DNA of 64,000 nucleotides, taken from Butyricicoccaceae bacterium. GTDB lineage: Bacteria; Bacteroidota; Bacteroidia; Bacteroidales; UBA932. The notes under the pieces were generated by a model. That model did not search any database, was not told the origin of the DNA, and worked only from the letters and a program-made list of their open reading frames with translations. The stretch lies in the NCBI GenBank assembly GCA_963654225.1, contig CAVKAQ010000002.1, positions 18,361-82,360 on the forward strand. Reading direction: 5' to 3'. The stretch's first letter is position 1, and each line of letters starts with the position of its first letter. Positions 16,356 through 17,825 of this stretch are shown one piece after another. A program made the position numbers and the translations under genes.

Positions 16356-17825
16356 ATGAAAAGGACTGTATTAACTGCTATTGCCGTTATCGCGGGAATG
16401 GTCGTTCTTTTGCCTTCTTGCAAGAAGGATACTAATGACGAACCTGTGGTAGTGCCGGTAAGCAATGTCACGATGGATTGCGCCGAGTTGGCGATTGAAG
16501 TGGGTGAAACCCGCGCTCTTGTCGCAACTGTAAAACCTGACAATGCTGACGACAAGGCTCTGAGATGGCTTTCATTGGATCCTGCTGTTGTCAGTGTCGA
16601 TGAAAACGGAACCGTGAAGGGATTGACGGCAGGAACCGGCAAGATCACTGCAAGGCCTGCATCTGATCAAAGTTTTGACAAAGCCGCATACTGCGTTGTC
16701 ACTGTCGCTGAAAAGGTCATACCTGCAGAAAAGATTACCCTGAACAAGACTTCTCTGAATATGTTTTCAAAGAAATCTTATCAGTTGGCGGCAACTGTCG
16801 AACCCGCTGACGCAACAGTTGCTGAGGTTACCTGGGAAAGTTCAGACGAGGAAGTCGCCATAGTAAATAAAAATGGTGTCGTGACAGCCTTGAAGGATGG
16901 CGACGCCATCATAACGGCATCGGTAAAGAATGCGGATGGTTTTATTGCGGAGGATTGCGGTGTGTCTGTATATGGGGTTTCTTTGTCAAAGACATCCGGA
17001 ATAATCGGGGTGAAAGACACTTTGGCTCTCGCACCTTATGTAGTATCCGAGAGCATACCATATTCAGATATCGCCTTTGTGCTTGCGTCTGAATATTATG
17101 CTGAAACCATTGAGGCAAGGAATGATGAATTTCAGAATATCGTCGGACTTTCTGCCGGAGAAGCTGTAGTTGTGGCTGTATATAAAGGTTACTTGGAAAT
17201 GGATACCAGCCTTAACCTCGCGTTCACTGTGGAAGTTGAAGACACTTTCCTGACATACATAAGCGATATGTTCAATATAAAAGGAACGGGGGCTGTAGCG
17301 GCTACAGAAAAGATTCTGGCGGGAACGGTGAATGTAAATGATAAAGTTCTTATTATGCAGGCAGTTGACACTTGCAAGAATTATGCTGTCAGAATAGCTG
17401 GATTGGTAAAATACAGAGCTCAATTGCCATCAGCTTCTGCAGGCGATACAGGTGTAGGATTTATTCTTGGAACCGACATACCTTACAAGAGCATTAAACG
17501 AGGATCAGCCATAATGGAAATGGATACACAACGAATTGCCGTTACAAAGAAGCTGACAGGAATAATGAATATAACTGCCAACACTCCTTTAATGAAGGAC
17601 ACCAAGGTAAGTTTCATTTCCAATAATATGGAGACTCTCGTTCAGATTGTTGATATTGGGGACAATGAGATGCTTAAGCCGAACAAGGCATATTTCAATA
17701 TAGGAGTCGAGGCCGTGAGCTCACCAAATCTCTATGACAGCGTAATCTGTTCGCTTGGGCAGAAAATAATACTCAGAGTCGGAGGAACAAACTTGGGAAC
17801 ATTCATTGTTACCGACTTCCAGTAA
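16356..17825 (+). CDS. Lipoprotein with Big_2 Ig-like repeats and a C-terminal EF-Tu domain II/III-like module
   Basis: Lipobox LLPSC-KKD and Big_2 repeats (LVATVKPDNADDKALRWLSLDPAVVSVDENGTV; LAATVEPADATVAEVTWESSDEEVAIVNKNGVV). Residues ~298-489 are colinear with the EF-Tu C-terminal barrels. Confidence 0.8.
   Translation: MKRTVLTAIAVIAGMVVLLPSCKKDTNDEPVVVPVSNVTMDCAELAIEVGETRALVATVKPDNADDKALRWLSLDPAVVSVDENGTVKGLTAGTGKITARPASDQSFDKAAYCVVTVAEKVIPAEKITLNKTSLNMFSKKSYQLAATVEPADATVAEVTWESSDEEVAIVNKNGVVTALKDGDAIITASVKNADGFIAEDCGVSVYGVSLSKTSGIIGVKDTLALAPYVVSESIPYSDIAFVLASEYYAETIEARNDEFQNIVGLSAGEAVVVAVYKGYLEMDTSLNLAFTVEVEDTFLTYISDMFNIKGTGAVAATEKILAGTVNVNDKVLIMQAVDTCKNYAVRIAGLVKYRAQLPSASAGDTGVGFILGTDIPYKSIKRGSAIMEMDTQRIAVTKKLTGIMNITANTPLMKDTKVSFISNNMETLVQIVDIGDNEMLKPNKAYFNIGVEAVSSPNLYDSVICSLGQKIILRVGGTNLGTFIVTDFQ

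Follow-up and report, generated by a model that had tools for sequence, protein, structure and literature searches.

A Bacteroidales lipoprotein with an Ig-like stalk and a C-terminal homologue of EF-Tu domains II and III

INTRODUCTION

What would the two beta-barrels of elongation factor Tu (EF-Tu) do at the end of a lipoprotein? The question is raised by an open reading frame (ORF) in a stretch of 64,000 nucleotides (the window: contig CAVKAQ010000002.1, positions 18,361 to 82,360 of the forward strand) from the genome of a gut bacterium of the Bacteroidales, deposited as Butyricicoccaceae bacterium. The ORF, at 16356..17825 of the window (+ strand), encodes 489 amino acids without interruption. 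The original prediction, made from the letters alone, was that a surface lipoprotein with Ig-like repeats ends, from position 17241 (codon 296) onward, in the domain II and III barrels of EF-Tu. In our judgement it is fairly probable that the product of this functional gene is an envelope protein with a lipid anchor, displayed for binding or adhesion, and that the barrels are the head with which it binds its ligand.

HOMOLOGY TO EF-TU DOMAINS II AND III

The following parts were recognized in the gene:

16356..16421, + strand, signal peptide and lipobox LPSC with Cys22 as the lipid attachment site (translation ends LLPSC; predicted local distance difference test score, pLDDT, below 50 for residues 1-30 in the full-length model)
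16422..16457, + strand, linker after the lipid-bearing cysteine, KKDTNDEPVVVP, which matches Bacteroidota lipoprotein export signals in part
16458..16709, + strand, Ig-like domain 1 (Big_2), residues ~35-118 (best Pfam Big_2 stretch 35-99; beta strands 37-118, pLDDT 75-91)
16728..16973, + strand, Ig-like domain 2 (Big_2 / Big-like), residues ~125-206 (Big-like match 157-191; beta strands 126-206, pLDDT 86-97)
16977..17240, + strand, third beta-rich unit, residues ~208-295 (mostly beta strands with short helices, pLDDT 89-96)
17241..17531, + strand, EF-Tu domain II-like beta-barrel, residues ~296-392 (PF03144 at 319-384, NCBIfam, phmmer, Foldseek)
17532..17822, + strand, EF-Tu domain III-like beta-barrel, residues ~393-489, to the C-terminus (NCBIfam EF-Tu alignment, Foldseek)

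The C-terminal module (residues ~296-489) is a homologue of EF-Tu domains II and III, and the match is far beyond chance. The domain II family GTP_EFTU_D2 (PF03144) was detected on residues 319-384 with 24.6-26 bits (E 1e-5 to 3.4e-5), below the Pfam cut-off of 30.3; it was above the cut-off in relatives P0005, P0007, P0121-P0125, and P0127 (P and L numbers denote relatives and loci of the analysis). The domain III family (PF03143) was sub-threshold in relatives with Big_2 domains and above threshold in those with SLH or dockerin domains. Four NCBIfam models of full-length EF-Tu aligned residues 291-487 with model positions 205-392 (of 394/396; E 2.7e-9 to 3.5e-8), and the claimed colinearity of residues 296-489 with the EF-Tu barrels to the same C-terminal end is seen in these alignments, which run to position 390-392, as well as in structural superpositions with a template modelling (TM) score of 0.83-0.85. 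The TIGR00485 equivalog model of EF-Tu gave 36.2 bits for the window protein, below its cut-off of 522.4, and 707.9 bits for the true tuf of the genome, which lies elsewhere (contig C26). The GTPase domain was correctly described as absent: no GTP_EFTU match was found in the window protein at E<=10, the EF-Tu models align only from position 205, and residues 1-295 are taken up by the leader and the Ig-like units. Part of the EF-Tu domain III loop (KEEGG) is also deleted, leaving a gap at positions 316-321 in the numbering of the genome's own tuf.

When residues 296-489 were compared with PDB sequences by phmmer, the best matches were EF-Tu (E 1e-4). A family profile (A1) built from an alignment of six family modules matched both barrels of solved EF-Tu chains (E 1e-25 to 1e-17), to about EF-Tu residue 391; 59 of the best 60 PDB sequences were forms of EF-Tu and the 60th was SelB. 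The barrel folds are shared with SelB, CysN, EF-1alpha, and IF2-gamma, but all of these keep the GTPase domain and are much more distant: SelB was detected at 3e-11, compared with 1e-25 for EF-Tu, and the CysN of the genome was unmatched by the family profile at E 1e-3.

An AlphaFold 2 (AF2) model of residues 290-489 was all-beta (pLDDT 85.1; predicted TM score, pTM, 0.74). Among the Foldseek matches listed from the PDB all were EF-Tu (E ~1e-13, query TM 0.78-0.85, root-mean-square deviation 1.8-2.7 A), with 19-23% identity over ~202 aligned columns; both barrels therefore superpose together in the same mutual orientation. EF-Tu complexes with antibiotics and toxins were among the structural matches (2c77, 1d8t, 7vmc, 4zv4). 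No solved structure belonging to the exported group was present among the PDB matches listed for Foldseek or the A1 profile. The viral structure library returned giant-virus translation GTPases as the only matches and no phage structural protein, and the ESM Atlas gave just sub-0.9 leads to domain II/III clusters. EF-Tu was recovered by profile and structure checks of the kind proposed with the original prediction (GTP_EFTU_D2 and EF-Tu profiles, AlphaFold with Foldseek). On the points where that prediction had declared itself vulnerable, the profile and structural matches are present, the C-terminus does not consist of further Ig domains, and the junction is not chimeric.

Also as predicted, the lipobox, the Big_2 repeats, and the C-terminal barrels lie in one ORF, whose translation contains all the peptides quoted in support. 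Big_2 scored 97.7 bits (Pfam cut-off 22.8) in two stretches and Big-like 45.8 bits. The third beta unit had no significant Pfam family, just a weak match to DUF3869 (E 0.12), and is probably a degenerate Ig-like domain. The full-length AF2 model (pLDDT 87.2, pTM 0.69) consists of a disordered leader (1-30), three beta units, and the two barrels (~297-489). Lipoboxes, here and in the relatives, were called by regular expression and by eye.

ORTHOLOGUES, PARALOGUE, AND SELECTION

The ORF is a real gene under purifying selection. The same architecture was found at four loci in as many genome assemblies (L009, L010, L011, and L012) and on 11 further metagenome contigs. The module is 87% identical to the window protein in L009 and 69% in L010, and at both loci the lipoprotein gene is followed, in the same order, by ORFs of nrdD and nrdG size. 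Nei-Gojobori ratios of nonsynonymous to synonymous substitution (dN/dS) among the three orthologues (window, L009, L010) were 0.08-0.22 in every part and 0.15-0.19 in the module. By part they were 0.08-0.13 in the third beta unit (undefined there for L009 vs L010, where dS is saturated), 0.12-0.17 in domain II, and 0.14-0.22 in domain III. Domain II is the best conserved part, with 81% identity between the window and L010 compared with 57% for domain III. The G+C content is steady across the Ig/barrel junction (0.41-0.45).

A paralogue is encoded in the same genome (L005:889-2106, contig C51), directly downstream of a gene for a protein with Big_2 and leucine-rich repeats. It has 405 amino acids, a lipobox (LPCC), one Big_2 domain, and domains II and III (EF-Tu model E 2.2e-17). 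Since it groups with P0123 and P0124 and not with the window copy, the two are either old paralogues or separate acquisitions. The recurrence of the architecture in four assemblies, 11 metagenome contigs, and a second gene of the same genome excludes a chimeric assembly. A short tail after domain III, (F/Y)EDV...SGK or ...SK, is conserved in P0005, P0007, and the paralogue; it is absent from the window protein and its closest relatives.

A FAMILY OF EXPORTED BARREL MODULES

A word-indexed homology search with the module alone returned only P0001-P0003 and gave the false impression of a tiny family. An exhaustive hidden Markov model (HMM) search with A1 yielded 2849 representatives at E<=1e-3, 583 at E<=1e-10, and 14 at E<=1e-30; Pfam scans and carrier counts given below refer to the best 150 of these. 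An extracytoplasmic partner domain was identified in 43, and the carriers were as follows:

Big_2 lipoprotein type, 10
SLH proteins, 23, one with zinc phospholipase C and PLAT and one with a pectate-lyase-like adhesive domain
dockerin proteins, 3
Flg_new proteins, 4
giant DUF285/LRR proteins, 3

The partner domains are mostly adhesin-like repeats (Big_2, Big_3, Ig_3, Flg_new, LRR_5, DUF285, SprB). A hydrophobic leader with Cys at its end is present in all 16 of the Big_2-type proteins examined (15 by regular expression; LQSC of P0003 by eye), and in 15 the Cys is followed directly by KK. A Sec signal peptide starts 21 of the 23 SLH proteins. Small relatives of ~250 amino acids combine a Sec signal, a short strand region, and domains II and III, and other small forms carry a Firmicute-type lipobox, an N-terminal transmembrane anchor, or a zinc ribbon followed by a transmembrane segment. 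In each of the 23 SLH proteins the module comes after the best SLH stretch, and in 18 of them no more than 10 residues separate its end from the C-terminus; in P0139 and P0167 it is placed immediately behind the dockerin domain. One SLH-type relative is named, as 'MAG: hypothetical protein [Ruminococcaceae bacterium]'. Many listed near-canonical domain III scorers (~130 bits) are fused to unrelated enzymes or ribosomal proteins; these are taken here to be fragments of tuf or chimeric gene calls.

The proposal that the barrels were recruited into dedicated exported proteins is supported by these separate genes, with their export signals and without a GTPase domain, and the window protein likewise combines an export signal with the lack of that domain. 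The architecture is less singular than first thought, since the module recurs on SLH, dockerin, Flg_new, DUF285/LRR, and small Sec-secreted proteins. Uncharacterized proteins of these other types (e.g. P0132, P0139, P0162, P0198) share with the window protein the module clade, the export signals, and the lack of a GTPase; they differ in using other anchors, in apparently belonging to other phyla (one is labelled Ruminococcaceae), and in having modules closer to EF-Tu. The exported barrel proteins are a dedicated paralogue family and not a second job of tuf.

Tandem modules were also observed, with two domain II/III units in P0129, P0136, and P0153 and three domain II barrels in P0144 and P0237; tandem barrels behave like repeat modules. 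Within lineages of the Big_2 proteins, length varies with the copy number of Big_2 (2 or 3 repeats), at 485/568/572 and 490/499/576 amino acids.

A few hits of the A1 search look cytoplasmic. P0206 joins TIR to domains II and III without a GTPase, P0242 and P0247 join TIR to a complete EF-Tu, and P0193 has two domain II barrels and a caspase domain. The three TIR-linked modules fall inside a branch shared with the genome's own tuf (support 97 in the tree described below). These fusions could be defense proteins using an EF-Tu copy as sensor or bait.

RELATION TO TUF AND THE ANCESTRAL BINDING SURFACES

A quick IQ-TREE search (LG+G4, 123 rows, 195 columns) was made with modules covering at least 150 profile positions, leaving out shorter or domain II-only pieces such as P0133, P0144, P0145, P0159, P0193, P0237, and P0240; 14 of 41 near-canonical rows were kept and the CysN of the genome was the outgroup. 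The CysN branch is very long, so only unrooted splits were used. A tree with tuf, SelB, and CysN had been suggested with the original prediction; in the one made here the modules separated from tuf, and CysN proved too long-branched for rooting. One split, with a Shimodaira-Hasegawa-like approximate likelihood ratio test (SH-aLRT) value of 99, places 61 modules, the window module included, apart from the canonical EF-Tu cluster that holds the genome's tuf. These 61 comprise all the Big_2 (16), SLH (24), dockerin (3), Flg_new (3), and DUF285 (3) modules of the tree and 12 that are small or partner-less; the Big_2 modules form a single branch within them (SH-aLRT 99). Substitutions shared by the exported group and lacking in canonical EF-Tu were found at five positions (own-tuf numbering: 216 P->Y/F, 272->A, 310 A->G, 376 L->Q, 390 G->F), and the window protein has all five (Y, A, G, Q, F).

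A separate cluster of 23 rows (support 94; P0148, P0149, P0136, P0165, P0245, P0263, and others) lies nearer to canonical EF-Tu, to which most of its modules are 40-60% identical. In 20 of the 23 a hydrophobic leader resembling an N-terminal transmembrane helix is present, sometimes preceded by a zinc ribbon, and P0252 and P0186 keep the GTPase domain behind a hydrophobic segment. This probably membrane-anchored cluster may be a second, independent recruitment of the barrels to the membrane.

Conservation was assessed at the 70 positions (the EF-Tu-invariant set) where 95% or more of 43 canonical modules agree. The residues of the aminoacyl/A76 pocket and of the T-stem/5'-end contacts are those that we take to be involved, on lists fixed after the conservation table was seen, which is a weakness of the comparison. 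The fractions kept were as follows:

All invariant positions: window protein 23/70, Big_2 mean 0.39, other exported mean 0.57
Aminoacyl/A76 pocket (presumed residues): window protein 4/11, Big_2 mean 0.63, other exported mean 0.76
T-stem/5'-end contacts (presumed residues): window protein 1/7, Big_2 mean 0.37, other exported mean 0.67
Other non-Gly invariant positions: window protein 8/35, Big_2 mean 0.24, other exported mean 0.41

Three residues presumed to close the domain II pocket are replaced in the window protein (own-tuf R226->T, E263->V, N277->T). Its module is 33% identical locally to the genome's own tuf, compared with 34-50% for the SLH, dockerin, Flg_new, and DUF285 types, in which the GGR loop is kept (82-87%). 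Judged from these residues, the domain II pocket seems to be under constraint across the exported family, and the subfamily of the window protein would have drifted furthest from the ancestral ligand chemistry. Because most of the aminoacyl-tRNA contact residues on these lists are lost in the window protein, tRNA binding is disfavored and aminoacyl-tRNA is an unlikely ligand; the suggested role as an extracellular RNA binder fares poorly against the 4/11 pocket and 1/7 T-stem/5'-end residues kept and the deleted KEEGG part.

SURFACE ORIENTATION

The lipobox of a Bacteroidota surface lipoprotein is present (LLPSC, Cys22). Bacteroidota lipoprotein export motifs are given as CS(D/E)2-3 and K-(D/E)2 in the available text of PMC6222051. 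Measured against the motifs in that text, the mature start of the window protein (CKKDTNDE) fits in part, CKKDD in P0003 and CKKDE in the paralogue fit K-(D/E)2, and CKKEK in P0005 and L012 does not. Since the fit is partial, an outward orientation in this organism is something that we infer.

With Big_2 surface proteins and Bacteroidota surface lipoproteins in general the window protein shares a lipobox, an acidic and lysine-rich mature start, and a Big_2 stalk of variable repeat number. It differs in that the distal part is an EF-Tu-derived barrel pair, not a lectin, an enzyme, or a SusE/F-like domain, and in that the gene does not belong to a SusC/SusD locus.

HOST, DISTRIBUTION, AND GENE CONTEXT

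The genome (2.97 Mb, 231 contigs, 97% complete) encodes LpxC and has 32 SusD_RagB matches; no match to Spo0A was found in it. This combination indicates a Bacteroidota of the polysaccharide utilization locus type, and the protein would accordingly be a lipoprotein of a diderm envelope. The NCBI titles of L009 and L010 name the Clostridia families Butyricicoccaceae and Acutalibacteraceae. These labels are doubtful and probably wrong, because they conflict with LpxC, the 32 SusD matches, and the shared downstream ORF order.

Lipoproteins of the Big_2 form are rare. A search of 80 further genomes from the family, three of them from the genus itself, yielded nothing but tuf-like matches (68-97 bits, mostly in frames of ~400 amino acids) and one fragment of 48 bits, and none of 400 further genomes sampled from the order (236 genera) contained the form at E<=1e-30. 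Pattern-based scans found it in four species genomes and 12 metagenome contigs, one of which is the contig of L012. The search for a lipobox, Big_2, and barrels that had been suggested for Bacteroidales was successful at these few loci and came back empty from the 400 sampled genomes. The module had no tblastn match in the phage and plasmid collections. One candidate member, L013, was rejected as an ordinary full-length planctomycete tuf caught through a shared motif.

Upstream of the lipoprotein gene lies a gene for an M48 peptidase, and nrdD and nrdG lie downstream, behind a possible terminator:

17906..17936, + strand, terminator-like hairpin of 12 pairs between the lipoprotein gene and nrdD (pattern scan only)

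A TATCTTTG motif is located at 17943-17950, 3' of the hairpin, and the two together lie ~105 bases ahead of nrdD; the count of motifs of this type in the window was not above chance. Pattern matches of this kind suggest that nrdDG is transcribed separately from the lipoprotein gene. A scan for sigma-70-type promoters gave fewer sites than in shuffled sequences, and TAnnTTTG was not enriched in the window, with no exact copy in the 169-bp upstream spacer. The M48 peptidase gene (14864-16186) lies in a stretch with a G+C content of 0.38-0.42, compared with 0.44-0.49 around it. It looks like a lineage-specific insertion, since by comparison of ORF size and order no ORF of that size lies between a 342-amino acid ORF and the lipoprotein gene at the syntenic locus L009.

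In one metagenome lineage (five loci) an ORF of 937-947 amino acids precedes the lipoprotein gene; the one at L011, the only locus scanned for it, is a hybrid two-component regulator with an AraC-type helix-turn-helix domain. In the other lineage the upstream gene varies (a 1121-amino acid hybrid regulator, an AAA_14/DUF4143 ATPase, or an unknown ORF) and the downstream genes are constant (a 171-amino acid ORF, LuxS, GroEL). Genes for AAA_14/DUF4143 ATPases adjoin in both lineages, on differing sides and strands (L011:6770-7915(-), L016:5002-6204(-), L022:3485-4774(+), L020:3837-4772(+)), and may simply be abundant in these genomes. No conserved operon partner was found at the loci compared (window, L009-L012, and the metagenome contigs).

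POSSIBLE FUNCTIONS OF THE BARREL PAIR

Without a GTPase and with export, the window protein cannot act in translation. In the reading that we prefer, processing by signal peptidase II would leave the mature protein hanging from Cys22, and the three Ig-like beta units, variable in number among relatives, would serve as a stalk. The protein ends in a rigid two-barrel module derived from bacterial EF-Tu domains II and III with loss of the GTPase. This module is one part of a wider extracytoplasmic family of EF-Tu-derived barrel pairs, set on lipid, SLH, dockerin, or plain Sec carriers, and the better conserved domain II barrel is the probable binding site or active face. The binding function, too, is one that we infer.

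Several points weigh against a displayed binding head. Binding is proposed from the architecture only. The mature start (CKKDTNDE) fits the export motifs in the available text only partly, and the CKKEK relatives fit them worse. The position of the module after the wall anchor in all 23 SLH proteins agrees as well with a wall-proximal role as with a distal head. Gene context carries no functional hint, as neighbors differ by lineage (M48/nrdDG vs regulators, ATPases, GH127, LuxS). Only one SLH-type relative carries a source name (Ruminococcaceae). The tree came from a fast search that had a single, long-branched outgroup and from which 27 of the 41 near-canonical rows were omitted.

The strongest competitor, which we regard as possible but considerably less likely than a displayed head, is that the barrel pair binds a polymer of its own envelope (a stem peptide, a secondary wall polymer, or an aminoacyl-esterified polymer or lipid) and so holds or orients the protein; the lipoprotein could then face the periplasm, with the Ig stalk reaching the wall. 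The placement of the module after SLH (23/23, near the C-terminus in 18/23) and directly after dockerin in P0139 and P0167 would suit such a role, as would the partial fit to the export signals in the available source. The presumed pocket residues are moreover kept about twice as often as other invariant non-Gly positions (0.76 vs 0.41 in non-Big_2 and 0.63 vs 0.24 in Big_2 modules); however, that list was set down after the conservation table, and the window protein keeps 4/11. In the Big_2 lipoproteins, by contrast, the module sits at the end farthest from the anchor, Big_2 stalks and a CKK(D/E) start resemble those of surface lipoproteins, and there are small secreted forms without any anchor.

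It is improbable that the barrels are an inert scaffold, a stable C-terminal cap or spacer that aids folding or stability of the stalk without binding a ligand. The lack of a conserved operon partner, the loss of most ancestral functional residues in the window subfamily, and the tandem copies resembling repeat domains (P0129, P0136, P0153) are what a scaffold would lead one to expect, but the module and the stalk are under equally strong purifying selection, family-specific conserved residues exist, the intact two-barrel unit is kept across very different carriers, and Ig domains need no such cap.

Slightly less credit still can be given to a target-mimic decoy, in which the barrels would soak up EF-Tu-directed thiopeptides, toxins, phage proteins, or host antibodies before these reach the cell. 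In favor of this, the module is genuinely homologous to EF-Tu and has its two barrels arranged alike, domain II is the best conserved part, binders of the required kind exist (the antibiotic and toxin complexes among the structural matches), and a patchy accessory distribution would suit a defense trait. With just 33% local identity to tuf, however, mimicry of the cell's own EF-Tu would be poor, and the presumed pocket-closing residues are replaced (R226->T, E263->V, N277->T). Known EF-Tu-dependent toxins act inside the cell, and no neighboring resistance or immunity genes were found at the loci scanned.

Binding of extracellular RNA or aminoacyl-tRNA through the ancestral domain II/III surfaces is very unlikely. 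EF-Tu domains II and III do bind the tRNA acceptor end and T-stem, and non-Big_2 exported modules keep the presumed contacts (pocket 0.76, T-stem/5' 0.67) better than other non-Gly positions (0.41). The window protein, however, has lost most of these contacts and the KEEGG part (as given above) and has no domain I, from which the GTP switch and the rest of the binding site come in EF-Tu. Aminoacyl-tRNA esters are also short-lived outside cells. An artefact, whether by chimeric assembly or through the accidental joining of a decaying piece of tuf to a Big_2 gene, can be dismissed: the genome is a draft of 231 contigs and many of the best 150 representatives with a near-canonical domain III look like chimeric or fragmentary calls, but the same junction recurs in four assemblies and 11 further metagenome contigs, within an uninterrupted ORF with dN/dS of 0.15-0.19, 33% identity to its own tuf, and G+C of 0.41-0.45 across the junction.

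EF-TU BARRELS OUTSIDE THE CYTOPLASM

EF-Tu has repeatedly been reported on bacterial surfaces as an adhesin, as a full-length, leaderless protein, with contamination and the export route as constant doubts. Host ligands other than transferrin have been reported for this moonlighting form. Full-length surface EF-Tu binds holo-transferrin in extraintestinal pathogenic Escherichia coli, according to the available text of PMC9037478. The proteins described here resemble moonlighting EF-Tu in carrying the barrels beyond the cytoplasm, where a role in binding is proposed for them. They differ in that the latter is a translation factor whose export route is unknown, whereas here a separate barrels-only gene has a classical export signal and an anchor. 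Compared with bacterial EF-Tu itself, the window protein has homologous barrels of the same fold and mutual orientation, colinear to the C-terminal end, but it lacks the GTPase, has a signal peptide and lipobox, and keeps 23 of 70 invariant positions.

No description of an exported, GTPase-less EF-Tu barrel module was found in the literature, with most subscription journals outside the search, and to that extent the claim that no family of this architecture has been described holds. The available text of an Omnitrophota preprint reports tuf genes in hypervariable regions and describes no such barrel module, and neither does that of PMC9037478. What is new is the use of known domains in an extracytoplasmic role and architecture, apparently undescribed.

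A broader possibility, which we think unlikely and offer as speculation, is that Sec-exported EF-Tu barrel pairs are a widespread, unrecognized class of surface modules still using the ancestral domain II pocket for an aminoacyl-ester-like ligand. In EF-Tu itself the pocket holds an aminoacyl ester whose amino group is free. Candidate ligands would be, for example, D-alanyl esters on teichoic acids, aminoacylated lipids, peptidoglycan stem peptides, or EF-Tu-directed thiopeptides, in which case the Big_2 lipoproteins of Bacteroidales would represent a derived branch whose pocket was re-tuned for a new ligand. If true, this would provide a genetically dedicated counterpart to the long-debated reports of surface EF-Tu.

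Bacteria of at least two envelope types have barrels-only EF-Tu genes behind classical export signals and on classical surface anchors. As such genes are under purifying selection, they are direct genetic evidence that the barrels are useful outside the cytoplasm. A module of 200 residues with no GTPase and no role in translation is a clean reagent for questions about ligands, and an unannotated domain type is added to the SLH, cellulosomal, and Bacteroidota lipoprotein repertoires.

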